38,979 nt of DNA from Escherichia phage LM33_P1. This document shows positions 8,957-36,442 of the stretch, in pieces (within the stretch, counting starts at the first letter, position 1; every line of letters starts with the position of its first letter). The notes under the pieces are model-generated. The model was not told the DNA's origin and did no database searches. It was given only the letters and a program-made list of their open reading frames with translations. The translations under genes and the position numbers were made by a program. The stretch lies in the sequence record NC_031937.1; one strand, 5' to 3'.

Positions 8957-9649
8957 ATGGCTAAAGAGCAACTGAAGACTTTCACCACTCCGGTAGCTGG
9001 TATCGTTGAGCCTTACGCATGGCTGAACAAAGCAGACACCAAGTTTAATGAACGTGGTGAGCATAAGGTTAACCTGACGTTCGACCTGAGCGACCCGAAG
9101 GTCCGTAAGATGATTGATGTCTTACAGAAGATTCACGACGATGCGTATGCGAAAGCACTCGCAGACCACGAGAAGAACCCACCTCAGGTTCAGCGTGGCA
9201 AGAAGCCTATTGAACCACGTGAAGGCGACATGCCGTGGATTGAGAATGGTGACGGTACTGTTACCCTTAAGTTTAAATGCTTTGCGTCTTACCTGAAAGA
9301 CGGCAAGTCCGAGCCTATCTTATTACGGTTCTACGACACCGATGCTAAACTCATCCGTGACGTCCCGAATATTAGCGCTGGCTCCAAACTGAAGGTCAAG
9401 TTTAAAGTCCTGCCGTTCAAGTGGAACGCTGCGACCGGTGCAAGCGTTAAGCTCCAGCTTGAGTCCTGCCTTCTTGTAGAACTGAAGGAGTGGAAAGGTG
9501 CTGGTGGTGATGGTGGCTGGGGTGATGATGAAGACCTTGGTACTGGCTACAAAGCGCCAACCGATGGTGACTTCGGGTCTGATGCCTTCGGTGACGATGG
9601 TTCCGAAGGTGGTGACGACTCCAGCTCTGGTGGCGATTACGACTTCTAA
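8957..9649 (+). CDS. 2.5: Single-stranded DNA-binding protein with acidic C-terminal tail ending in F
   Basis: Similarity to T7 gp2.5 (MAK.....EPYA., GDMP...NGDGT..FKFKC.AS, SKLKVK....P.KWN.A.GASVKLQLES..LVEL); D/E/G-rich tail ...GGDYDF. Confidence 0.9.
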   Translation: MAKEQLKTFTTPVAGIVEPYAWLNKADTKFNERGEHKVNLTFDLSDPKVRKMIDVLQKIHDDAYAKALADHEKNPPQVQRGKKPIEPREGDMPWIENGDGTVTLKFKCFASYLKDGKSEPILLRFYDTDAKLIRDVPNISAGSKLKVKFKVLPFKWNAATGASVKLQLESCLLVELKEWKGAGGDGGWGDDEDLGTGYKAPTDGDFGSDAFGDDGSEGGDDSSSGGDYDF

Positions 9650-10101
9650 TGGCCCAATGGTCTGCAAAACGGGGGCACTCTGTGGGTGCCTACCGCTCTG
9701 GACTTGAAGCCAAGAACCAGCAGTGGCTGGAACAGAACGGCGTCAAAGCGGAGTACGAAAGCCATTATATCAACTATGTGATTCCGGCTTCCGACCACAA
9801 GTACACACCAGATTTTATCCTTCCTAACGGTATCATCGTGGAGACCAAAGGTATCTTCGATAGTGATGACCGTAAGAAGCACCTTCTGGTACGAGAACAG
9901 CACCCAGAGTTAGACATCCGGTTCGTGTTCTCAAGTTCACGCTCCAAGTTATACAAAGGGTCTCCAACCACGTATGGCGCATGGTGCGAAAAGAACGGCT
10001 ATAAGTATGCCGATAAATTCATCCCGGTTGAGTGGCTTCGAGAGGCGACTGTACGTCTGCCTTCAGGTATACTCATCCCCAAGAAGAAAGGAGTTAAGTG
10101 A
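9649..10101 (+). CDS. 3: Endonuclease I (Holliday junction resolvase)
   Basis: Similarity to T7 gp3 (YTPDF.LPNGI.VETKG...SDDRKKHLL.REQHPELDIR.VFSSSR.KLYKGSPT.YG). Confidence 0.9.
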   Translation: MAQWSAKRGHSVGAYRSGLEAKNQQWLEQNGVKAEYESHYINYVIPASDHKYTPDFILPNGIIVETKGIFDSDDRKKHLLVREQHPELDIRFVFSSSRSKLYKGSPTTYGAWCEKNGYKYADKFIPVEWLREATVRLPSGILIPKKKGVK

Positions 10102-10592
10102 TGAGCAAGAAGTTTAAACTGTTAGTAGATGCGCATGGCTGGCCTAGTGGGACTATAGTTACCAAGTGTGAGAATGACCCCGTACCAGATTCAAGAATGA
10201 CCCTAGTTGAGTGCCAGATTCCAGGCGCATACAAACATGGGTCTAACGGCTGCAATACTCAGCCTGAGGGTATGTGGGGAGCATGGGTCCTTAATTGGAA
10301 ACTTGAGGAAATCAAGCCGGAAGAGAAACTCACTGGTGTCCAAACCACTCAAGTCCTGCCAGCTTCGAGCGTACCGCCTGTGACTTTGAAGCGTGAAGTC
10401 CTGACCATCGACAAGATTGGTGTAGGCCAGACGTTCATCGTCCATGGAAAGCCTGAAGAAGTTTACGTGAAGATTAGCAACTCACACGTCTTCAACCATA
10501 AGCATCTCCAGATGCACACCACGGACGCACAACGCTTCACCCAGCACCTGAATCTGGTTGTCGTAGAATTGGTGGTGTACAATGGTAAGTAA
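10101..10592 (+). CDS. Hypothetical protein (163 aa) between endonuclease I and amidase
   Basis: ORF with RBS AAAGGAG, ATG overlapping the gene 3 stop (TGATG); no T7 counterpart recognised. Confidence 0.6.
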   Translation: MSKKFKLLVDAHGWPSGTIVTKCENDPVPDSRMTLVECQIPGAYKHGSNGCNTQPEGMWGAWVLNWKLEEIKPEEKLTGVQTTQVLPASSVPPVTLKREVLTIDKIGVGQTFIVHGKPEEVYVKISNSHVFNHKHLQMHTTDAQRFTQHLNLVVVELVVYNGK

Positions 10593-11040
10593 GGTACAGT
10601 TCAATCCACGGTCCCGGACCGACGCTATCTTCGTACACTGTTCGGCTACCAAGCCAGAGATGGACATCGGGGTAGAGACCATCCGTATGTGGCACAAGCA
10701 GCAAGGCTGGCTGGACGTAGGCTACCACTTTATCATCAAGCGCGATGGCACTGTGGAAGAGGGACGCCCGGTCAATGTCGTAGGGTCACACGTTAAGGAC
10801 TGGAACTCACGGTCTGTAGGCGTCTGCCTTGTAGGTGGAATTGACGCTAAGGGCAAGTTTGAAGCTAACTTCACTCCGGCCCAGATGAACTCCCTGCGCA
10901 ACAAGCTGGCTGACCTGAAGGACTTGTATCCTCAGGCAGAAATCAAAGCACATCATGACGTAGCACCAAAGGCGTGTCCAAGTTTCGACTTGCAACGCTG
11001 GCTGTCTACCAATGAACTGGTCACTTCCGACCGAGGCTAA
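10582..11040 (+). CDS. 3.5: N-acetylmuramoyl-L-alanine amidase (T7 lysozyme, RNAP-binding)
   Basis: Strong similarity to T7 gp3.5 (DAIFVHCSATKP, WLDVGYHFIIKRDGTVE, CPSFDL..W....ELVTSDRG). Confidence 0.92.
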   Translation: MVSKVQFNPRSRTDAIFVHCSATKPEMDIGVETIRMWHKQQGWLDVGYHFIIKRDGTVEEGRPVNVVGSHVKDWNSRSVGVCLVGGIDAKGKFEANFTPAQMNSLRNKLADLKDLYPQAEIKAHHDVAPKACPSFDLQRWLSTNELVTSDRG

Positions 11041-25823: not shown

Positions 25824-26294
25824 ATGTATATTCGCAAGGCTACGGAACAGGATGTCCACTACTTTCTGTGGCATCTTTCAGCAGATGATGTTAATGAGTG
25901 CAAAGCAAACTACGGGTCAACCGTGGGTCTCTCAGAGAGACTGCTTAAGCATCTATCTCCGTCATCTGTGGTTTTAACGAACGGTGTAGGTGAAGTGTTT
26001 GCCTATGGTGGAAACCAAGGGGATAACGTATGGTTCTTGACTTCGGGTCTGGTCCACAAGCTGAGACCTAAAGAGAAGCGAGAGTTCATAAAGCGTATCT
26101 CTGAGTACAGGGACTTAATGTTAGACCAATACGGGACCATCTGGAACTACGTGTGGTCAGGCAATAAGTCTCACATTAAATTCTTGAAGTTGCTTGGGGC
26201 TAAGTTCCATGATGATTGGACTATCAGCCCGGTAACTGGTGAGCATTTTCAATTATTCACTATCTCTAAGGAGGACGTATGTGTGAACCCGTAA
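25824..26294 (+). CDS. Gene 13-position protein (internal virion/assembly protein)
   Basis: Synteny; RBS TAAGGAGA after promoter. Confidence 0.6.
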   Translation: MYIRKATEQDVHYFLWHLSADDVNECKANYGSTVGLSERLLKHLSPSSVVLTNGVGEVFAYGGNQGDNVWFLTSGLVHKLRPKEKREFIKRISEYRDLMLDQYGTIWNYVWSGNKSHIKFLKLLGAKFHDDWTISPVTGEHFQLFTISKEDVCVNP

Positions 26295-26866
26295 GTATCG
26301 GCATGGGTATCATGGCTGTAGCCGGGGCCACTATGTCCGCATCCCAGCAGGCAAAGGCCGAAGGTGCAGCAATTGACGCTCAGAACCGACAGGCTCAGGA
26401 AATGGTTAAGCAGATGAACTACTCTGACGCCAACCTGAGAATGCAGGAGCGAGACCTGAAGGAGCAGCAGATGGCTGAATTGACAGAGACCACGCTCAAC
26501 GGTATACGCAATCAGGGCATGGTCAGAGCTGCAGTGGCTGAGTCAGGTCTGGAAGGTAACTCTATGGACAGGATTGAACGTCAGGTCAAAGGAGATACAG
26601 TCAAGGAGCGAGCAGGGATTACCGAAAGTTACAACCGAGACTATGCGGCTATCTTCGGGAACCGTATCGCCAACATTGAGAACACAAAGTCTGCTATCCG
26701 TGGTCAAGGTAAAATCATCAAGACCAGCCCACTGGCCCATGCACTTAATGTTGCTAGCGCCGGGATGCAAGGTTACGCCGCTGGTAAGTCAATCTCTGGA
26801 GCGTCCAGCTCTGGCGGTGCTGCACCTATTAGTGCTGCTAAAGGCACACCTACAGGTCATAGCTAA
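26279..26866 (+). CDS. 14: Internal virion protein B
   Basis: Similarity to T7 gp14 (MC........G, GSSMDRI.R, TE.Y.RDY.AIF, AK.PI.AAKGT.TG). Confidence 0.85.
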   Translation: MCEPVSIGMGIMAVAGATMSASQQAKAEGAAIDAQNRQAQEMVKQMNYSDANLRMQERDLKEQQMAELTETTLNGIRNQGMVRAAVAESGLEGNSMDRIERQVKGDTVKERAGITESYNRDYAAIFGNRIANIENTKSAIRGQGKIIKTSPLAHALNVASAGMQGYAAGKSISGASSSGGAAPISAAKGTPTGHS

Positions 26867-26877
26867 GAGGAGGAATA

Positions 26878-29160
26878 ATGGCTAGTAATATTGAATCAGC
26901 TCTGGCTAATCGGACTATGGGTCGTGGCAGGGCTCCGGGTAAAACTATCGCCGTCAACTATCAAGCAGCCAGCGTTCAGGCTCCTACTGGTGACTCCGGT
27001 CTGGCTCGTGCGTTAACCAACTTCGTTGAGTCTGGGACAGGATTGTACAAGCAGTTCAAGGACGAGGAGAAGACACGGGCCGACGAGCGGTCTAACGAGA
27101 TTATCCGTAAACTGACACCTCAGCAAAGACGTGAGGCTATCCAGAACGGTACATTGCTGTATCAGGATGACCCTTACGCTATGGAAGCACTTCGAGTCAA
27201 GACGGGCCGTAACGCTGCCTTTGCGGTTGATGACGAGATTAACGTTAAGATTCAGAACGGTGAGTTCCGTACACGTCAGGACATGGAAGAGTATCGCCAC
27301 CAGAGACTTCAGGACGCCGCTAAGTCCTATGCTGAAGAGGCTGGTATTAACCCTACCGACGAGTTCTTCCAGCGCGGGTTCAACGATAACATCACAGACC
27401 GAAACATCGCTATCTATGGGTCTTTCAATAAGTATTTCAGCAAGCAGTCTGAAGAGACAGCAATGTTGAACACTCGTATTGAGATGAACTCGTTCCTTAA
27501 CGATGGGGACCTGATGCGTTCGCCTGAGTCTGGAAAGACCTTCATGGCCTACCTTCGGGATGGACTGACGACTGCTGCTATCCCTTCGGACCAGCGAGCA
27601 CGAGAGGTAATCACCCAGACTGTCCGTGACGCAATCCAGAAGTCAGGAGGCTCAAACTTCCTACAGCAAGTCCGTGGCGAGCGTATCACCCTTAACGGTG
27701 TGGACGCTACAGTCGAAGAGATTGTAGGCCCTGACGTCTTCAATGCTGCTGTGGTTGAGGCTCAAGGTACCGAGTACAAGTTGGTGGCTAAGTATCAGGA
27801 AGACTTATCGTTAGGCGTTCAGTCTGCGATTCTTCAGGACGACCCAACCATCGGTCTGGACCAGATTCAGAAACTCAAGGAGCAGAACAACCTGCTTCAG
27901 CCGGGTGAAGAACTCACGCCTCAGCGTCAGATGCTTATTAATGCCGAAGCCAGCTTACTGGAAGCGGTCAAGCGTAAGTCCGCTGAACAGGCGAAGGAGA
28001 ACACTAAGTTAATCCAGACCCAGAACAAGCAACTAGTCATAGACCAAGTGTATCAGCGACGTCTGGCTGGGGACAACGTGTCCACCAACTATGAGGACCT
28101 TCCGGTCTCAGATGCTACAGGAGAGTTCAAACGTTCAGACATGAACAACTATGCGTCTGCCAAGCTACAGCAGATTGACCAGATGGACATCCCTGAGGCT
28201 GCTAAGGACGCCCAGAAGGTGGCATTGTTAAGGGCTGACACTAACAACGGTCCGTTCCGTAATGCCTTCCAGACGCTTACTCAGGACGCTGCTGGTGAGT
28301 GGCAAGCTGCGGTCATCCGTGGACAGTACGACCCAGACAAGATGAAACGCTTCGAGTCTCTTCGTCGTGCCTACACTCAGGACCCTTCAAGTTTCGCTGC
28401 TCTGTATCCTGACCAAGCTCAGTTGTTCTCTACGTTCGACCAGATGGACAAGATGGGTCTGGACCCTCAGACGATGATTGAAGCTGATAAGCAAGCTGCA
28501 AGTCAAAGCCGTGAGATGCGCATGGAGTCAGACAAGGCGTGGCAGGAGTTGAAGAACGACTCTCGGAATAAGGACCTTTCGCGTCTTCCTACGTCTCTGG
28601 ACGCAAGTGCTCGTAAGGTCTGGGACTCATGGTACTATCGTACAGGTAACGCTGACGCTGCAACTCAGCAGACTCAACGCTGGCTGAATGAGAACACCGT
28701 AACGTTCCAGTCTGATGGTTCTGATGGTAAGTCCATCGGCATGGTGTCCAAGCACCAGCTTATGGTCGGGGATAACCCAGAGTCGTGGCAGGTGGGTCGA
28801 GACATTATCGACACCGCTCGTAAGCAGCTCATTAAGGACAACCCTTGGGTAGTGAACTCTCAGTTGTCCGTTGTTGAACAGAACGGCTCTATCTTCCTCC
28901 AAGACGCTACGGGGACTATTCGTATTCGATACGATAAAGAACTTGTAGGTAAACTCTACCGCGAACAACAGCAGAAGGTACAAGATGCCGCATATGCTCA
29001 GGCAGAACGTGACGCTAACAAGCGAGCGCGTATCGTCGGGACTAAAGCTGCTGGTGACAAACGTCGAGCTGACCGAGAGGCCAACATCGAGAAGAGCGGT
29101 GGGATGTACAATGACGTCTCACTGGAGGGTATCGCAAACGTACTAATTGGTAAGGAGTAA
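26878..29160 (+). CDS. 15: Internal virion protein C
   Basis: Size (760 aa) and synteny with T7 gp15. Confidence 0.85.
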   Translation: MASNIESALANRTMGRGRAPGKTIAVNYQAASVQAPTGDSGLARALTNFVESGTGLYKQFKDEEKTRADERSNEIIRKLTPQQRREAIQNGTLLYQDDPYAMEALRVKTGRNAAFAVDDEINVKIQNGEFRTRQDMEEYRHQRLQDAAKSYAEEAGINPTDEFFQRGFNDNITDRNIAIYGSFNKYFSKQSEETAMLNTRIEMNSFLNDGDLMRSPESGKTFMAYLRDGLTTAAIPSDQRAREVITQTVRDAIQKSGGSNFLQQVRGERITLNGVDATVEEIVGPDVFNAAVVEAQGTEYKLVAKYQEDLSLGVQSAILQDDPTIGLDQIQKLKEQNNLLQPGEELTPQRQMLINAEASLLEAVKRKSAEQAKENTKLIQTQNKQLVIDQVYQRRLAGDNVSTNYEDLPVSDATGEFKRSDMNNYASAKLQQIDQMDIPEAAKDAQKVALLRADTNNGPFRNAFQTLTQDAAGEWQAAVIRGQYDPDKMKRFESLRRAYTQDPSSFAALYPDQAQLFSTFDQMDKMGLDPQTMIEADKQAASQSREMRMESDKAWQELKNDSRNKDLSRLPTSLDASARKVWDSWYYRTGNADAATQQTQRWLNENTVTFQSDGSDGKSIGMVSKHQLMVGDNPESWQVGRDIIDTARKQLIKDNPWVVNSQLSVVEQNGSIFLQDATGTIRIRYDKELVGKLYREQQQKVQDAAYAQAERDANKRARIVGTKAAGDKRRADREANIEKSGGMYNDVSLEGIANVLIGKE

Positions 29161-29164
29161 CATA

Positions 29165-32100
29165 ATGGCGACTCGTGGTATTCGCAATAACAATCCGGGT
29201 AACATCCGGGTAAGTAAGGACCAATGGGAAGGGATGACTGGAGATGATGGCGCATTCGTCACCTTCGATAGTCCAGAGTCTGGCGTCCGAGCTTTAGGTA
29301 AAAACCTGCTGTCCTACGGTCGCCAAGGTTATGACTCCATCGAGAAGATTATCAACCGATGGGCACCTCCTAACGAGAACGACACTAAGGCTTATATTGA
29401 CTCAGTGGTGGCTGCAACTGGTATTCCAGCTACCCAGAGTCTAGACCTATCTGACCCTGACACCCTGTCTTCTCTGGCACAAGCTATCAGCTTCCATGAG
29501 ACAGGATCACGGTACGACCCTGAAGTCTATCAGAAGGGAGTCGCACGGGCACTCAATGGCATTAGCCCAAAGACTCCACCAGTAAGCGCTAACGTATTTG
29601 ACGCACTCACGGAAGGACTCAAGGCTAAACCTAAAGTAGATCTGGGCGAGAACCTTCCGACCGCTGCTGGTCTAAACATTGAGGGTCAAGCACCTGAAGC
29701 TCCCAACGAATCGTTCGGTGAGATGTTCTATAAGTCTACTGGCGAGACCATGCAGGAACGAGAGGATCGCTCTACGTGGTTCGGTTTCGGCTCGGCTACA
29801 GAAGCTGAAGTGAAGAACTCTATGGTCGGCGTGGCTATCCGCGCTGGTCAGACCGAGGACTCACTTGATGTCATTGGCGATGTGTTTAACCCGACCCGCT
29901 GGAACAACCATAAGTGGTCTCGTGAGGAGCTGGACCAGATTCGTAACGCTGGAGTTCTTCCTCAGTATTACGGGGTCATTACTGGTGGCTCCCCTCAGAA
30001 CCTGACCGAGCTTATTAACTTGGCGCTTGAGAATCAGAAGTTGGACCAAGAGAAGGCCAAGGCTGGGATTGGTGCTCAGTTAGCTGCTGGTGTGATTGGG
30101 GCTGGCGTGGACCCTCTGACCTACGTTCCTATTGCTGGGCAGGTAGGCAAAGGTGGGAAGCTAGTCAACAAGATGTTCACTGTGGCAGCTCAGTCTGGTG
30201 CTCTGGCTGGTGTGTCTGAGATGGCCCGTACCTCAGTGGCTGGTGGTGATGCTCATGTGGCTGAAGCTATCCTTGGCGGTGCTCTCTTCGGTGGTGGCAT
30301 GACTGCTATCGCTGATGGGTTAGGCAGAGCCTTAGGCCGCAACACTAATGAGTTTGCTGGCCCAGCTACACGTCTGGAAGCTCGTGAGACCGCTCGTAAC
30401 GTTGATGGTCAGGACCTGTCTCGTCTTCCTATTCAGGAAGGTGAGCAGACCTTTAGTCATCAAGGTGTTAAGTTCGCAGACGTTCCGAACGAGCCGGGTA
30501 GTGTACGACTGGAAGATGGTTCAATCCTGATTGGTGAGAATCCTCTGAACCCTCAGACACGTAAAGTCTTTGACGAAGTGATTGAGCCTGAACGTGCCGC
30601 TGCTGGTGTGAACCTTGGTGGGCTGACTGAGATTGGCCTGAAGCTGCTTCGGTCCGAGAACCCTGAGATTCGTGGAGTAGCTGCTGACTTAGTACGTTCA
30701 CCGACTGGTATGCAGTCTGGGGCCTCAGGTAAAATAGGGACAACTGCGTCAGACGTATTCGAGAGACTTCGTGCTGTGGACCATCGGTTCTACAATGACA
30801 TCGACGATGCGGTTACTGAGGCACTAAAGGACCCGTACTTCCAGACAGCATTCTGGCGAGACTCTGGCGCATTCCGTCAAGACATCTATCAGCGCGTGTC
30901 TATGGCTATCGAAGATGGTAGCGGAAACCTGAAGGCTGAATTGACTCCGGGAGAACTGAAAGTCTATGACCTGCTGAAGAACCAGTTTGACGCCAAGCGT
31001 GAGATGATGGAGAACCCCGCTATGTTTGGTCGCCCAGACGCTCAGTCTATCTTTCCGGGTAGCCGCTTCAAGGGAACATACGTCCCGCATGTGTATAGCA
31101 ACCAGATGAAGGAGCTGTACATCAAGGAGCTTGGGAGTCCAGAGGCACTACAGGAGGCCATCAAGAAGTCATGGTTGACCAGCTATGCGTCTCGACCTGA
31201 AGTCAAGAAACGTGTGGACGAGGCACTCTTAGAGGCTGACCCTACGTTGACTCCAGAAGGACTTGCGGCTGCGGTCGATAAGTACGCCAACGATAAGGCT
31301 TATGGTATCTCTCACACCGAGCAGTTCGAGCGTTCATCCGTAATGGAAGAGAACATCAATGGTCTGGTGGGTCTGGAGAACAACAGCTTCCTTGAGGCTC
31401 GTAACCTGTTCGATAGCGATATGTCAATCGTCCTACCTAACGGTCAGACCTTCAGTGTCAACAACCTGCGTGAGTGGGACATGGACAAGATTGTCCCGGC
31501 CTACAACCGTCGAGTTAATGGCGATATTGCTATCATGGCTGGTACAGGCAAGACCACGAAGGACATGAAGGACTTGGTTGAGACCCTGATGAACAAGGCT
31601 GGGGATGACGGTAAGTTGAAAGGTGAAGTATCTACCTTACGTGACACTTTGAAGATTCTAACTGGTCGTGCTCGACGTGATGGTGCTGATGATGCGGCCT
31701 TCGCTACCGTGATGCGCACAATGACAGACCTATCGTTCTTCGCTAAGAATGCCTACATGGGTGTTCAGAACTTAACGGAGATTGGTGGTATGCTGGCTCG
31801 TGGTAACGTTCGTGCAATGCTTCATGGAGTCCCAATTTTCCGTGACCTAGCCTTCCGTAACAAGAAGGTTGGGGCCTCAGAGATTAAGGACCTGCACAAT
31901 GTTATCTTCGGTAAGGAACTGGATGACTCAATCCGTCCGTCTAAACAGGATGTCATTGACCGTCTGCGATCTTACAGTGACCTCGGTCGTGGTACAGCTA
32001 CAGCTCTGGGGACTGCCAAGTATTACACTGGCGAACTTGCAGTACGCTCTCCGTTCACTAAAGTCCTCAACGGTACGACCAACTACCTGTTAGATGCTGG

Positions 32101-33052
32101 ACGTCAGGGCTTCCTGTCTGACATCGTGGAGCATAGCCTGACTGGTAGTAAGCGTAAGTTCGATGACCGCTGGCTGAAGACCGCTGGTATCTCTGACGAG
32201 CAGTGGAAGGGCATTAAGTCCCTAATCCGTGAGTCAGTGACTCGTGGTCCAGACGGGAAGTACACCATCAAGGATAAGAAGGCGTTCAGTCAGGACCCAA
32301 GGGCTATGGACCTCTGGCGTATGGGTGACACCATCGCTGACGAGACGTTACTCCGGCCTCATAAGCTGTCAAACATGGACGCCAAGGCTTATGGTCCTCT
32401 CGCTAAGACTGTCCTTCAGTTTAAGAACTTCGTCATCAAGTCTATCAATGGGAGAACCATGCGAACCTTCTATAACGCCACGAAGAACAACAGAGCGATT
32501 GACGCTGCACTGTCGACCGTGATGTCTATGGGTCTGGCTGGTATCTACTACATGGCTCAGGCGCATGTCAAGGCTTATGCTATGCAGGATGGTCGAGACC
32601 GTGACTACCTTAAGCAAGCTCTGGACCCAACGATGATTGGCTATGCGGCCCTGTCCCGTAGTTCACATCTTGGTGGCCCACTTGGGGTAGCTAACATTCT
32701 GGGTGGAATCGCTGGGTATGAGGACACTAAGATGCTCCGCTCGTCAATCCTTCCGCGCTCACCTACCGAGAAGACGGAGAAGCCAATCGCCTTTGGTGCT
32801 GCTTCCAGTGGTCCGGTAATGAATGTGGTCGGCAACTTCCTTGAGCAGGTCCCGGCTTTCGGCTATGCTGCTAACGTTGGTGCTACGGCTTACAACTTGG
32901 CGGGATACCTCAAGGCTGATACCCGTGTCAACGAGCGAGACTACATGACCGGGATGTATAACACGTTCCGTGAACTTGTACCGAATGACCCGATTACCCA
33001 GAAGTTGCTGCTTGGAACGTTTGAGGAGCAGGGCATCCACATCAAGGACTAA
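29165..33052 (+). CDS. 16: Internal virion protein D (ejection/core protein) with divergent N-terminal domain
   Basis: Collinear similarity to T7 gp16 over most of its length (DLVRSPTGMQSGASGK, ENPA.FG, YGISH.DQF..SS..EENI.GLVG.ENNSFLEARNLFDSD, RPHK.S, ALSRSS.LG.PL); start at ATG after AAGGAG (track ORF begins 29147). Confidence 0.9.
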   Translation: MATRGIRNNNPGNIRVSKDQWEGMTGDDGAFVTFDSPESGVRALGKNLLSYGRQGYDSIEKIINRWAPPNENDTKAYIDSVVAATGIPATQSLDLSDPDTLSSLAQAISFHETGSRYDPEVYQKGVARALNGISPKTPPVSANVFDALTEGLKAKPKVDLGENLPTAAGLNIEGQAPEAPNESFGEMFYKSTGETMQEREDRSTWFGFGSATEAEVKNSMVGVAIRAGQTEDSLDVIGDVFNPTRWNNHKWSREELDQIRNAGVLPQYYGVITGGSPQNLTELINLALENQKLDQEKAKAGIGAQLAAGVIGAGVDPLTYVPIAGQVGKGGKLVNKMFTVAAQSGALAGVSEMARTSVAGGDAHVAEAILGGALFGGGMTAIADGLGRALGRNTNEFAGPATRLEARETARNVDGQDLSRLPIQEGEQTFSHQGVKFADVPNEPGSVRLEDGSILIGENPLNPQTRKVFDEVIEPERAAAGVNLGGLTEIGLKLLRSENPEIRGVAADLVRSPTGMQSGASGKIGTTASDVFERLRAVDHRFYNDIDDAVTEALKDPYFQTAFWRDSGAFRQDIYQRVSMAIEDGSGNLKAELTPGELKVYDLLKNQFDAKREMMENPAMFGRPDAQSIFPGSRFKGTYVPHVYSNQMKELYIKELGSPEALQEAIKKSWLTSYASRPEVKKRVDEALLEADPTLTPEGLAAAVDKYANDKAYGISHTEQFERSSVMEENINGLVGLENNSFLEARNLFDSDMSIVLPNGQTFSVNNLREWDMDKIVPAYNRRVNGDIAIMAGTGKTTKDMKDLVETLMNKAGDDGKLKGEVSTLRDTLKILTGRARRDGADDAAFATVMRTMTDLSFFAKNAYMGVQNLTEIGGMLARGNVRAMLHGVPIFRDLAFRNKKVGASEIKDLHNVIFGKELDDSIRPSKQDVIDRLRSYSDLGRGTATALGTAKYYTGELAVRSPFTKVLNGTTNYLLDAGRQGFLSDIVEHSLTGSKRKFDDRWLKTAGISDEQWKGIKSLIRESVTRGPDGKYTIKDKKAFSQDPRAMDLWRMGDTIADETLLRPHKLSNMDAKAYGPLAKTVLQFKNFVIKSINGRTMRTFYNATKNNRAIDAALSTVMSMGLAGIYYMAQAHVKAYAMQDGRDRDYLKQALDPTMIGYAALSRSSHLGGPLGVANILGGIAGYEDTKMLRSSILPRSPTEKTEKPIAFGAASSGPVMNVVGNFLEQVPAFGYAANVGATAYNLAGYLKADTRVNERDYMTGMYNTFRELVPNDPITQKLLLGTFEEQGIHIKD

Positions 33053-33116: not shown

Positions 33117-35297
33117 ATGTCCACGATTACACAATTCCCTTCAGGAAACACTCAGTACAGGATAGAGTTCGACTACCTAGCCAGAACGTTTGTTGTTGTT
33201 ACGCTGGTGAATAGCTCTAACCCTACCCTGAACCGTGTACTGGAAGTTGGTCGAGATTACCGATTCCTTAATCCAACGATGATTGAGATGTTGGCTGACC
33301 AATCAGGTTTCGACATCGTTCGTATTCACCGTCAGACTGGAACTGACTTAGTGGTAGACTTCAGGAATGGCTCAGTGTTGACAGCTAGTGACCTGACCAA
33401 TTCAGAGCTTCAGGCTATCCATATTGCAGAAGAAGGTCGAGACCAAACGGTTGACTTAGCGAAGGAATATGCCGATGCTGCTGGTAGCTCTGCTGGCAAC
33501 GCTAAGGATAGCGAGGACGAATCACGCCGAATCGCTGCGAGTATCAAGGCAGCTGGTAAAATTGGCTATATTACCCGTCGCTCCTTCGAGAAAGGCTTCA
33601 ACGTTACAACATGGAACGAGGTCCTGCTATGGGAAGAGGATGGTGATTATTACCGCTGGGATGGTACGCTTCCAAAGAACGTTCCCGCTGGTTCAACTCC
33701 TGAATCATCTGGTGGTATTGGGCTGAGTGCGTGGGTTAGTGTTGGTGATGCGTCACTTAGAGCAAACCTGGCTGATAGTGATGGCGCTAAATACATAGGC
33801 AGTGGAGAAAGGACATTACTTGAGCACAACAATGATGTTTTGCACTCAAAAGACTTTCCAACACTGCAGGCAGCTATAGATGCATCTTTGCAAAAAAATG
33901 ATCTACTGGTGTCTCCTGGCAATTATACTGAAAAAGTTACTATTGGAAACGCGCAGTTAAAAGGTGTTGGCGGGGCCACGGTACTAAAAACTCCGGCAGA
34001 CTTTACAAACACTGTTCAGGTTAATTTAGCTACACCTCATTGGCAATTCCGCCATAGTGGTGGTTTTGCTATAGATGGTTCCGGGACAACCGGGGCCGTA
34101 GGTATTAGTTTTGACCCGTCAGACCAATATTCCGGACGTCATAATTTTAGTGATGTATACATCCACAACATCAACAAGGCCATTCAGAAGCCTTCCGGGA
34201 ACATCGGCAATACTTGGAGAAATATTGGGATATCTACGTGTGATTGGGGGTATTACGCGATTAGTGGCTCAGAGATGCATTGCGGGGCCGATACCCTCTA
34301 CAATATCCACTTCGATGGCATCTCCACCTATGCAGTCTATCTAGACGGCACTGTCGATAATGGCGGGGGGGGCGCATGGTGGCTTAAAGACTCCATTATT
34401 GAGGCTTCCGGAGGTGGCGGGATATACTTAAAAAGTAAATCGGGCGACTGTCCTACATCTCCATGCGGGGTATCCAATATATGGATGGAAGCGATCGCAA
34501 CATCACCGGCTGTTCAGGTAGACGGCGTGGCGCAAAAACCGCGAGTTCTCAAGTTGGTAGACACAGCGATATTCTTTGCTGAGTATTCTTATCTCAACAA
34601 CATCGAGCTATCCAACTCCAACTTAGTAACTTATGGTTGCCGTTTTGACAACGCTGATGGCAATCAGGATATTGTCGTGGATGCACAAAGTACCATTGTA
34701 GCCCATGACGTGTATTTAAACGGCAGTTCTGGAAAGGACGTTATTGTGGAGTCCGTAGCATCGCAATCTGCAACGATAGCTGCCACAAACTTATCTCTGA
34801 GGGGCAACTTAACAAGAGGGAGAGTATTTAATACGCCGACAGGGAATAAATTAATGGCTATCACATTTGACTCAGGTAGCCATAATTTTTCTGGCAGCGG
34901 CACCGTTAACGGTTCGACTGTATCTGACGGACTTCACGCCGCTACATGTACCGAATTTTCATTCCCCGGAGCCGGTTTATATGAAATGGTAGCGACAAGA
35001 ACAACCATTACATCCGGTAGATGGTACGTGTGGGGAGTTAACTCACGCCTACAATCTGGCTCGGCGGATATTAGTATAACGTCAGGTATTACCATGGGTA
35101 GTGTTTACACAAAGCCGGGGGAGTGGATTAGCACTTTCGGTGTAGGAAAGGCATCTACCACTGGCACTGTAGCGCTATACGTTTCCACAGGAGGAGGTTC
35201 GGGAGCTACGGTCAGATTCAGTGACTTTTTCATCGCTGAGTTTACGACGCAAGCTCAGGCTTTAGCTTTCGCCAATTCAAGGATGTCGTTATCATAA
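33117..35297 (+). CDS. 17: Tail fibre/tailspike: T7 gp17-like N-terminal domain fused to beta-helix-type C-terminal receptor-binding/depolymerase-like module
   Basis: N-terminal roughly 150-220 aa resemble T7 gp17 (F.YLAR.FVVVTL......L....DYRF, H.AEE.RD); C-terminal portion is Gly/Ser/Thr-rich with repetitive beta-strand pattern and distinct AT-richer codon usage. Confidence 0.88.
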   Translation: MSTITQFPSGNTQYRIEFDYLARTFVVVTLVNSSNPTLNRVLEVGRDYRFLNPTMIEMLADQSGFDIVRIHRQTGTDLVVDFRNGSVLTASDLTNSELQAIHIAEEGRDQTVDLAKEYADAAGSSAGNAKDSEDESRRIAASIKAAGKIGYITRRSFEKGFNVTTWNEVLLWEEDGDYYRWDGTLPKNVPAGSTPESSGGIGLSAWVSVGDASLRANLADSDGAKYIGSGERTLLEHNNDVLHSKDFPTLQAAIDASLQKNDLLVSPGNYTEKVTIGNAQLKGVGGATVLKTPADFTNTVQVNLATPHWQFRHSGGFAIDGSGTTGAVGISFDPSDQYSGRHNFSDVYIHNINKAIQKPSGNIGNTWRNIGISTCDWGYYAISGSEMHCGADTLYNIHFDGISTYAVYLDGTVDNGGGGAWWLKDSIIEASGGGGIYLKSKSGDCPTSPCGVSNIWMEAIATSPAVQVDGVAQKPRVLKLVDTAIFFAEYSYLNNIELSNSNLVTYGCRFDNADGNQDIVVDAQSTIVAHDVYLNGSSGKDVIVESVASQSATIAATNLSLRGNLTRGRVFNTPTGNKLMAITFDSGSHNFSGSGTVNGSTVSDGLHAATCTEFSFPGAGLYEMVATRTTITSGRWYVWGVNSRLQSGSADISITSGITMGSVYTKPGEWISTFGVGKASTTGTVALYVSTGGGSGATVRFSDFFIAEFTTQAQALAFANSRMSLS

Positions 35298-35992: not shown

Positions 35993-36442
35993 ATGCTCGA
36001 ATTTTTAAAGAGAGCGGCTCCGTGGTTACTTGCAGCAGTGATGTTTGCTGGTGGCTACCACACCGCTAACAATAAGTGGGAGGCTAAGGTCAATGCAGAA
36101 TACACCTCGAATCTTAAGGCATCGGAAGATACAAGGCTTGCTGTCCAAGCTGAAGTCAACAAAGTGTCCAAACGGTTTCAGGACGAAATGTCCTCGCTGG
36201 AAGGCAGCACTGATAGGATTATTGCTGACCTTCAGTCTGACAATAAGCGGTTGCGCATCCGAGTCAAACCAACGAGTGGAACCACGCAAAGTGACGGTCG
36301 ATGCTTCATTGATGGTTACGCCGAACTTGACGAACGAGATGCTAAACGTCTTATCGCCATCGGAGTGAAAGGAGACAAGTGGATTAAGGCCCTTCAAGAC
36401 ACTGTGAGAGCCTTACAGCAAGAGAAGGAGGTGACGCATTGA
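35993..36442 (+). CDS. 18.5: Rz-like i-spanin
   Basis: Similarity to T7 gp18.5 (MLEFL....PW.LA...[30 protein letters not shown]...GD.WI.ALQDT.R.LQ). Confidence 0.8.
36093..36368 (+). CDS. 18.7: Rz1-like o-spanin lipoprotein embedded in +1 frame within Rz
   Basis: Embedded ORF encodes signal-like [15 protein letters not shown] with lipobox-like ISGC and C-terminal ..MV.PNLT.EMLNV; start codon uncertain. Confidence 0.55.
   Translation: MQNTPRILRHRKIQGLLSKLKSTKCPNGFRTKCPRWKAALIGLLLTFSLTISGCASESNQRVEPRKVTVDASLMVTPNLTNEMLNVLSPSE

Follow-up and report, generated by a model that had tools for sequence, protein, structure and literature searches.

The internal virion protein D of Escherichia phage LM33_P1, the homologue of T7 gp16, carries an Enc34-type peptidoglycan glycosidase domain at its N-terminus, where T7 gp16 has a lytic transglycosylase domain. 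Used therapeutically against E. coli, LM33_P1 is a K1F-like phage of the subfamily Studiervirinae, in the genus Kayfunavirus. We analyzed its genome (NC_031937.1; the window is the whole stretch of 38,979 nucleotides) to follow up an earlier note, made from the sequence alone, that had proposed a swapped cell-wall-hydrolase module at the start of gp16. The swap is an old, genus-wide Kayfunavirus trait and is not peculiar to LM33_P1. Very probably, gp16 is a T7-type ejectosome protein with an exchanged N-terminal muralytic head, an Enc34-type virion lysin that acts at entry.

The N-terminal head of LM33_P1 gp16

29165..33052, plus strand: gene 16 homologue (internal virion protein D, ejectosome component), 1295 amino acids (aa), 141 kDa; basis, open reading frame (ORF), phrog_342 and T7 identity
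29165..29557, plus strand: Enc34-type (PHA02564) peptidoglycan glycosidase domain, residues 1-131, in place of the T7 SLT domain
29558..29782, plus strand: start of the T7-collinear part, the 'GISPK...' linker homologous to T7 gp16 ~157-228; basis, BLASTP 125/152

Residues 125-1295 of LM33_P1 gp16 are collinear with residues 152-1315 of T7 gp16 (54% identity over 1171 residues, E = 0; BLASTP against NC_001604), as the earlier note had claimed for the remainder of the protein. No BLASTP alignment to T7 gp16 was obtained before residue 125, and comparison of the N-terminal 150 aa with the N-terminal 175 aa of T7 gave E = 2 only. The phmmer match to T7 gp16 chains in the PDB likewise begins at residue 125 (7eyb_I, E = 0), and phrog_342 covers the full length of gp16 (E = 0). 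The Pfam SLT model (PF01464) matched residues 15-127 of T7 gp16, the positive control (E = 1.7e-31). Because this control matched, it is informative that scans of full-length LM33_P1 gp16 and of residues 1-150 returned nothing from Pfam, even at E <= 1, and nothing from NCBIfam. A jackhmmer search seeded with the T7 N-terminus found 34 of the 44 gp16-type sequences described below (33 representatives and T7 gp16), and LM33_P1 gp16 was not among them. The SLT motifs (the N-terminal 'ES' glutamate, GLMQ and AYNxG) are absent from residues 1-131. The motifs quoted in the earlier note were all located: GIRNNNPGNIR at residues 5-15, WEGM at 21-24 and FVTFDSPESGVRA at 31-43.

The upstream gp13, gp14 and gp15 homologues are 52%, 38% and 47% identical to their T7 counterparts, and therefore the break at the gp16 N-terminus is a real discontinuity rather than general divergence. 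The T7 transglycosylase domain (residues 1-156) ends where the junction lies (residues 125-132; T7 152-157), and the 'GISPK' that starts at residue 132 matches T7 'GITPK' at ~157. The interval originally assigned to the domain, 29165-29600, has its end (residue 145) slightly too far downstream, the domain ending near residue 131 (29557).

Apart from a nearly identical 9vvp chain, a phmmer search of all PDB sequences with residues 1-150 matched the 'Endolysin' chain 7q47_A (E = 2.4e-15; query 3-123, chain 7-140). At E <= 1e-3 there were 936 homologous proteins, mostly of 130-220 aa and several named 'structural protein', and no Pfam domain was present in any of the 120 listed out of these 936. 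We used two alignments: A1 holds 40 family sequences (39 homologues and the LM33_P1 domain), and A2 holds 11 (gp16-borne domains, phiV10 and Enc34 ORF39). A hidden Markov model (HMM) of the 40 family members, the LM33_P1 sequence included, matched gp16 residues 1-138 with E = 7.6e-60. The structure of the head was predicted with a local distance difference score (pLDDT) of 90.7 and a template modelling score (pTM) of 0.85, and the predicted fold is all-helical, resembling the lysozyme alpha-lobe. Foldseek matched this prediction to 7q47 (E = 2.7e-9, TM 0.83), and structural matches in BFVD included 'virion protein' and 'internal virion protein D' entries. The Enc34 catalytic domain is described as CDD family PHA02564 (PMC8943055), a domain that has no Pfam or NCBIfam model. 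By sequence, predicted fold and retained catalytic signature, the head of LM33_P1 gp16 is an Enc34-type domain, which bears out the proposed module swap.

Many GenBank names imply that the head is instead a T7-like lytic transglycosylase diverged beyond recognition, and numerous relatives are labelled 'peptidoglycan lytic exotransglycosylase'. The Enc34 authors also propose remote common ancestry with GH23, with a single catalytic Glu in a spatially equivalent position (PMC8943055). When the Enc34-type alignment was compared by hhalign with an alignment of 28 SLT-type gp16 N-termini, the probability was 4.4%. The sole match was a weak stretch of 29 columns that was not significant (LM33_P1 gp16 23-51, T7 gp16 65-93), pairing an 'F.F..PE.GIRA.A..L' helix with the SLT 'D..dP..sI.AaA..L' helix; the resemblance of 'F..P..GIRA.A' to 'dP..I.AaA' within it is compatible with a very distant permuted Enc34-GH23 relationship. 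Residues 1-131 showed no fold similarity to GH23 structures, and the N-terminus gave no profile match to a standard SLT or lysozyme-like transglycosylase, the result that the earlier note had named as fatal to its proposal. We consider a diverged transglycosylase unlikely. Because the Enc34 fold is argued to be a very distant, circularly permuted relative of the GH73/GH23 lysozyme-like enzymes (PMC8943055), the claim that the first 130 or so residues are unlike T7 holds for family and sequence and not necessarily for ultimate ancestry.

Putative active site and proposed role at entry

29360..29362, plus strand: Trp66 codon, equivalent of Enc34 Trp79 (aromatic, positions substrate); basis, alignments
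29393..29395, plus strand: Tyr77 codon, equivalent of Enc34 Tyr95; basis, alignments A1 and A2
29498..29500, plus strand: Glu112 codon in the motif FHETGS, equivalent of the proposed catalytic Enc34 Glu131; basis, alignments A1 and A2

Enc34 ORF39 was taken from its genome, and the numbering of the paper is offset by one from the native Met1; in the sequence, 'RWAPP' contains Trp79, 'TAYAN' contains Tyr95 and 'RHENGS' contains Glu131. These residues were proposed by superposition on GH73/GH23 enzymes with a permuted helix order (PMC8943055), and in LM33_P1 the conserved Glu112 comes after the conserved Trp and Tyr, which is the order described for Enc34 in that source. Tyr77 and Glu112 are invariant in A1 and in A2, including the diverged gp16-borne copies, and Trp66 is W in at least 90% of A1. 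The head retains the full signature RNNNPGNIR...W.G...G.RA...APP.E.N.T..Y...HE.G. In pairwise comparisons of LM33_P1 with six Kayfunaviruses, the ratio of nonsynonymous to synonymous substitution rates (dN/dS) of residues 1-131 was 0.03-0.13, with dS up to 1.7, and that of a gp16 body stretch was similar (0.04-0.08). These low values indicate that purifying selection maintains the domain with its catalytic residues intact. We also sought a signal of recent transfer in the G+C content and found none (domain, 0.511; gp16 body, 0.525; 393-nt windows, 0.521 +/- 0.016). Thus, the acquisition was not recent.

The structural model of the T7 ejectosome gives the head a place. Residues 1-156 of T7 gp16 make up the transglycosylase 'wings' attached to the periplasmic tunnel of gp15, a 'molecular tape' (residues 157-228) holds on to gp15, and the remainder inserts in the inner membrane and reaches the cytoplasm (PMC8954989). 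LM33_P1 gp16 shares with the T7 protein (PDB 7EYB, 7K5C, 6YT5) its position after gp13-14-15, its collinear body, the layout of muralytic head, gp15-binding linker and membrane/cytoplasmic body, and the presumed role of building a trans-envelope DNA channel. In contrast, the T7 head is a Pfam SLT, GH23-like domain with catalytic Glu37 near its N-terminus, whereas the putative catalytic Glu112 of LM33_P1 lies near the C-terminal end of a domain that is ~25 residues shorter and whose predicted chemistry is hydrolysis of the other glycosidic bond. A ~99% identical protein, 'Gp29', is chain 9vvp_L of PDB 9VVP ('Core proteins of the bacteriophage E1004'), which suggests that gp16 is likewise a packaged core protein.

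We propose that gp16 would be packaged in the capsid core and, at infection, would leave through the tail after gp14 and gp15. The N-terminal head would then sit outside the gp15 periplasmic tunnel, level with the murein layer, where Glu112, assisted by Tyr77 and Trp66, could cut glycan strands locally by hydrolysis. Such a local opening would let the gp15/gp16 channel span the periplasm and reach the inner membrane. The enzymatic activity, the bond specificity, and the timing and place of action are those that we infer from Enc34 and M4Lys biochemistry and from the T7 model. In a turbidity assay, the purified Enc34 catalytic domain, freed of the C-terminal transmembrane domain, lyses E. coli, P. 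aeruginosa and Hafnia cells that have been permeabilised, and the authors of that work class the family as glucosaminidases whose mechanism is GH73-like (PMC8943055). A form of M4Lys that lacks the transmembrane domain breaks down E. coli murein, and analysis by high-performance liquid chromatography and mass spectrometry (HPLC-MS) was read as N-acetylglucosaminidase activity (PMC7143992). By analogy, the bond cut is most probably that between N-acetylglucosamine and N-acetylmuramic acid, GlcNAc-beta-1,4-MurNAc (N-acetylglucosaminidase, GH73-like), and not the MurNAc-GlcNAc bond cut by the T7 transglycosylase. On these grounds a glucosaminidase would be clearly favoured over a transglycosylase, with a considerable share left undecided, and our confidence in the specificity is lower than in the overall explanation.

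Several points weigh against an active, entry-specific glycosidase. The role of Enc34 Glu131 was deduced from structural superposition, no mutagenesis being described in the sections consulted (PMC8943055), and a single HPLC-MS study, of a 34% identical endolysin, stands behind the family specificity (PMC7143992); that M4Lys study also contains an unexplained endopeptidase product and one figure legend that says muramidase. Trp66 is not strictly kept: Tyr replaces it in Kosakonia phage Kc166A, and Leu does so in P0144, the protein of Providencia-phage type. No murein activity of LM33_P1 gp16, or of any Kayfunavirus gp16, is reported in the searchable literature. Moak and Molineux are said to have found, in 2000, that the T7 muralytic domain is dispensable under standard laboratory conditions, and therefore the fitness contribution of the head may be conditional.

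The reported conditional dispensability of the T7 activity would also fit a head that is a catalytically dead structural or murein-binding module, a tunnel 'wing' or anchor only, as would the lack of any reported activity for LM33_P1 gp16 and the 7 of 44 gp16-like representatives that apparently have no N-terminal hydrolase. However, the invariance of Tyr77 and Glu112 and the retention of the whole signature are a strictness unexpected in a scaffold, and the head dN/dS is ~0.1 or lower. We find a dead module distinctly improbable and return to an active Enc34-type lysin.

The biochemically characterised relatives of the head are lysis proteins. Both Hafnia phage Enc34 ORF39 (PDB 7Q47) and M4Lys of Salmonella phage BSPM4 are endolysins of ~26 kDa that are encoded in lysis cassettes, have a C-terminal transmembrane domain and act from within late in infection. 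The LM33_P1 domain, in contrast, forms the N-terminus of an ejection protein of 141 kDa that is packaged, and it lacks the two loop insertions of Enc34. The LM33_P1 genome has lysis genes of its own.

10582..11040, plus strand: T7 gp3.5-like amidase, a separate endolysin; basis, Pfam Amidase_2, E 7.7e-17
35993-36442: Rz-like spanin

Since both are present, the gp16 head is dispensable for lysis. That it is a second endolysin, causing lysis from within late in infection instead of serving entry, is very improbable. The same family does supply true endolysins to Enc34, BSPM4, D3112-like, Seurat-like and SSU5-like phages, but here the head is part of a 1295-aa protein that the capsid core contains (PDB 9vvp, through Gp29), the gp16 N-terminus is without the signal or transmembrane segment of some other family members, the genome encodes the amidase and spanin listed above, and the close relative Vec13 has an annotated holin just downstream of the tail gene.

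Distribution and exchange of the head

A tblastn search with the head domain matched 685 phage records, ~222 of them at >= 60% identity. Among the >= 60% matches listed, all were T7-like gp16 genes, from phages of Escherichia, Salmonella, Enterobacter, Klebsiella, Citrobacter, Cronobacter and Kosakonia. K1F and LM33_P1 share 94% nucleotide identity over the whole gene and 96% amino-acid identity over the head. One 62% match, Enterobacter phage 01_vB_Eclo_IJM, was dropped for its frameshift-ridden assembly. The T7-type SLT head occurs in 1139 records and the gp16 body in ~1300, and by these counts roughly one cultured gp16 in six has an Enc34-type head.

The remaining tblastn matches were of three kinds: true endolysins (Enc34, Siskin, BSPM4, and D3112-like, Seurat-like and SSU5-like phages), an internal domain of the 837-aa structural protein of the epsilon15-like phage phiV10, and proteins of tailless vibriophages. 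Among the last is NO16 GP11, which is part of the virion and has an Enc34-like fold (PMC13552765), and the domain is also present in tape-measure, head and 'injection transglycosylase' PHROGs. The Enc34-type family is used in many virion-protein architectures. The phiV10/epsilon15-like protein, PM2 P5-like proteins and NO16 GP11 resemble the LM33_P1 head in being virion-borne and are nearest to it by sequence, but their carriers differ, and the domain is internal or free-standing in them, not N-terminal as in LM33_P1.

Other arrangements were seen among the homologues. Two proteins hold the domain as a tandem pair, P0177 (1259 aa) at 302-440 and 542-683, and P0194 (1337 aa) at 87-203 and 697-815; P0218 (3773 aa) holds a single copy at 499-640. 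The free-standing members in A1 fall into three types, with an N-terminal hydrophobic segment (signal-anchor-like), with a C-terminal transmembrane tail (like Enc34 and M4Lys), or with neither. The contrast between P0003, P0004, P0008, P0093, P0100, P0111 and P0118 on one side and P0007, P0021 and P0082 on the other suggests at least two export solutions among the endolysins of this family.

The history of the head was examined through the gp16 body. A phmmer search of 1.84 billion cluster representatives gave 42 full-length or near-full-length representatives (one per 50% cluster) that matched the body, and these, together with LM33_P1 gp16 and T7 gp16, formed a set of 44 gp16-type sequences that we typed with local HMMs. 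Thirty-four have an SLT-type head, three an Enc34-type head, and seven no N-terminal hydrolase. The three Enc34-type proteins are LM33_P1 gp16, P0126 (uncultured source, 39% body identity) and P0144 (30% body identity), the last of which is 97.7% identical to a Providencia phage PSTRCR_120 protein. The seven headless proteins (P0125, P0127, P0140, P0150, P0154, P0164 and P0165; 1100-1220 aa) may be genuinely without a head, with a lysin elsewhere in the ejectosome, or may be truncated metagenome gene calls.

Neighbour joining on 1029 columns of the body gave a tree in which the Enc34-type proteins, all three, were scattered among the SLT-type ones, and pairs of them grouped in 0 of 200 bootstrap replicates. 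With the head as a character, Fitch parsimony required three changes in 196 replicates and two in the remaining 4. The LM33_P1 body is nearest to T7 (56% identity, versus 39% for P0126 and 30% for P0144). Its head is 50-57% identical to free-standing domains and to copies embedded at ~250-390 of 500-1000-aa proteins, the phiV10 structural protein being an annotated example of the latter, and is less like the heads of P0126 (43%) and P0144 (40%). Together, the body tree and the head identities point to a muralytic head that has been exchanged repeatedly and independently at this one linker, with SLT-to-Enc34 exchange probably having occurred at least two or three times. The trees are distance-based and the proteins very divergent, and the exact clade of LM33_P1, T7 and P0121 has 17% bootstrap support; our claim is therefore limited to the non-grouping of the Enc34-type lineages and names no precise sister relationship. 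On this pattern, the gp16 N-terminus looks like a recombination hot spot at which unrelated muralytic modules have been swapped repeatedly at one linker.

That murein hydrolase modules are shuffled between the ejection proteins of podoviruses is already established, and so is the Enc34-type family as an enzyme family. SP6 gp36 and phiKMV gp36 are lysozyme-type virion lysins (PMC5380687), phiKMV-like and Dunnvirinae phages have a lysozyme domain at the C-terminus or in the middle of a gp15-like tunnel protein (bioRxiv 10.64898/2026.05.18.726046), and both the fusion point and the module type vary between podovirus lineages (bioRxiv 10.64898/2026.05.18.726046; PMC5380687). The C-terminal lysozyme on the gp15-like protein of phiKMV (gp36) and Ar-KM (gp42), and SP6 gp36 and K1-5 gp38, follow the same principle as LM33_P1 gp16, a small murein hydrolase fused to an ejection protein. 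In those lysins, however, a lysozyme-type module sits on another protein or at another end, whereas LM33_P1 uses exactly the T7 fusion site with another enzyme family.

The repeated replacement of SLT by Enc34-type heads (in Kayfunavirus, Providencia phage PSTRCR_120 and the uncultured lineage) might have been adaptive rather than neutral shuffling, although we regard an adaptive origin as improbable. A glucosaminidase would hydrolyse the GlcNAc-MurNAc bond without needing a free C6-OH on MurNAc, might thereby evade host defences against lytic transglycosylases and lysozymes, such as MurNAc O-acetylation or periplasmic transglycosylase/lysozyme inhibitor proteins, and would release no 1,6-anhydro-muropeptide signals. 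MurNAc O-acetylation is known in Providencia, Proteus and Morganella. If the replacement were adaptive, the type of muralytic head would be a determinant of host range or entry efficiency for therapeutic phages such as LM33_P1.

The gp16 body showed a second kind of variation. Kosakonia phage Kc166A gp16 (L003:892-5283) has 1464 aa and an in-frame insertion of ~168 aa that falls between LM33_P1 gp16 residues 690 and 691 (about 31234-31237), where LM33_P1 has none. Among other Kayfunaviruses, the gp16 genes of ST31, P7124, ZH4 and ElsieAttenhofer_Bas105 gave two-piece matches over ~4.4 kb instead of 3.9 kb, and an 'endonuclease' or 'HNH nuclease' is annotated under gp16 in GA2A, Ro45lw and EPr2. 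These observations suggest a homing-endonuclease or intein-like insertion site inside gp16.

Annotation and gene neighbourhood

GenBank names for gp16 relatives range from 'hypothetical protein' and 'internal virion protein' to 'transglycosylase' and 'peptidoglycan lytic exotransglycosylase', and the database labels of the Kayfunavirus gp16 head are mostly wrong. A 2025 in-silico review of 39 putative lysins of uropathogenic E. coli phages found no domain in these 1295-aa proteins. We found no explicit statement of an Enc34-type head on Kayfunavirus gp16 in the searchable literature, which excluded the K1F genome and E1004 structure papers. Within that literature, no paper links Enc34 with gp16 or with internal virion proteins of T7-like phages, papers on K1F, gp16 and transglycosylase do not discuss the N-terminus, and none was found indexed under 9VVP. 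An earlier description of the Kayfunavirus head is possible, and users of CDD would see PHA02564.

The main value of the assignment is a correction of annotation that affects about 220 sequenced Kayfunavirus-type phages, several of them therapeutic (LM33_P1, K1F derivatives), and it supplies a testable active site (E112) and a probable difference in bond specificity. Of 205 Autographivirales genomes surveyed in a preprint, only 127 had a lysozyme or transglycosylase domain that could be identified in their ejection proteins (bioRxiv 10.64898/2026.05.18.726046); domains without a Pfam model, like the Enc34-type head, may explain part of the others. As an apparent exchange hot spot, the gp16 N-terminal linker is also a natural engineering site. 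The evolutionary point on recurrent exchange is modest and no surprise for specialists; this is a fairly ordinary phage part swap that leaves the general picture of mosaic ejection proteins unchanged.

The gene order around gp16 is T7-like, running from gp13 through gp14, gp15 and gp16 to the tail spike.

26279..26866, plus strand: gp14 homologue (ejectosome outer-membrane pore component); basis, 38% identity to T7 gp14
26878..29160, plus strand: gp15 homologue (periplasmic tunnel protein; ejectosome partner of gp16); basis, 47% identity to T7 gp15
29152..29157, plus strand: Shine-Dalgarno AAGGAG, 7 nt upstream of ATG 29165; basis, read from sequence

The Shine-Dalgarno sequence adjoins the gp15 stop codon (TAA, 29158-29160). 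The true start of gp16 is ATG 29165, TTG 29147 being merely the first in-frame start of the listed ORF. Elsewhere in the window, a 164-aa ORF with a GTG start and no Pfam match (10098-10592, plus strand) lies between endonuclease I (9649-10101) and the amidase; we know of no T7 gene of similar size at that position. Downstream of gp16, the tail-spike gene (33117-35297, plus strand) encodes a T7 tail-fibre N-terminal adaptor (PF03906) and a Tail_spike_N (TSP1/Gp66) domain, followed by a long C-terminal part without a Pfam match. This gene is the usual site of the host-specific (O25b) depolymerase of LM33_P1 and forms a second mosaic junction adjoining gp16.

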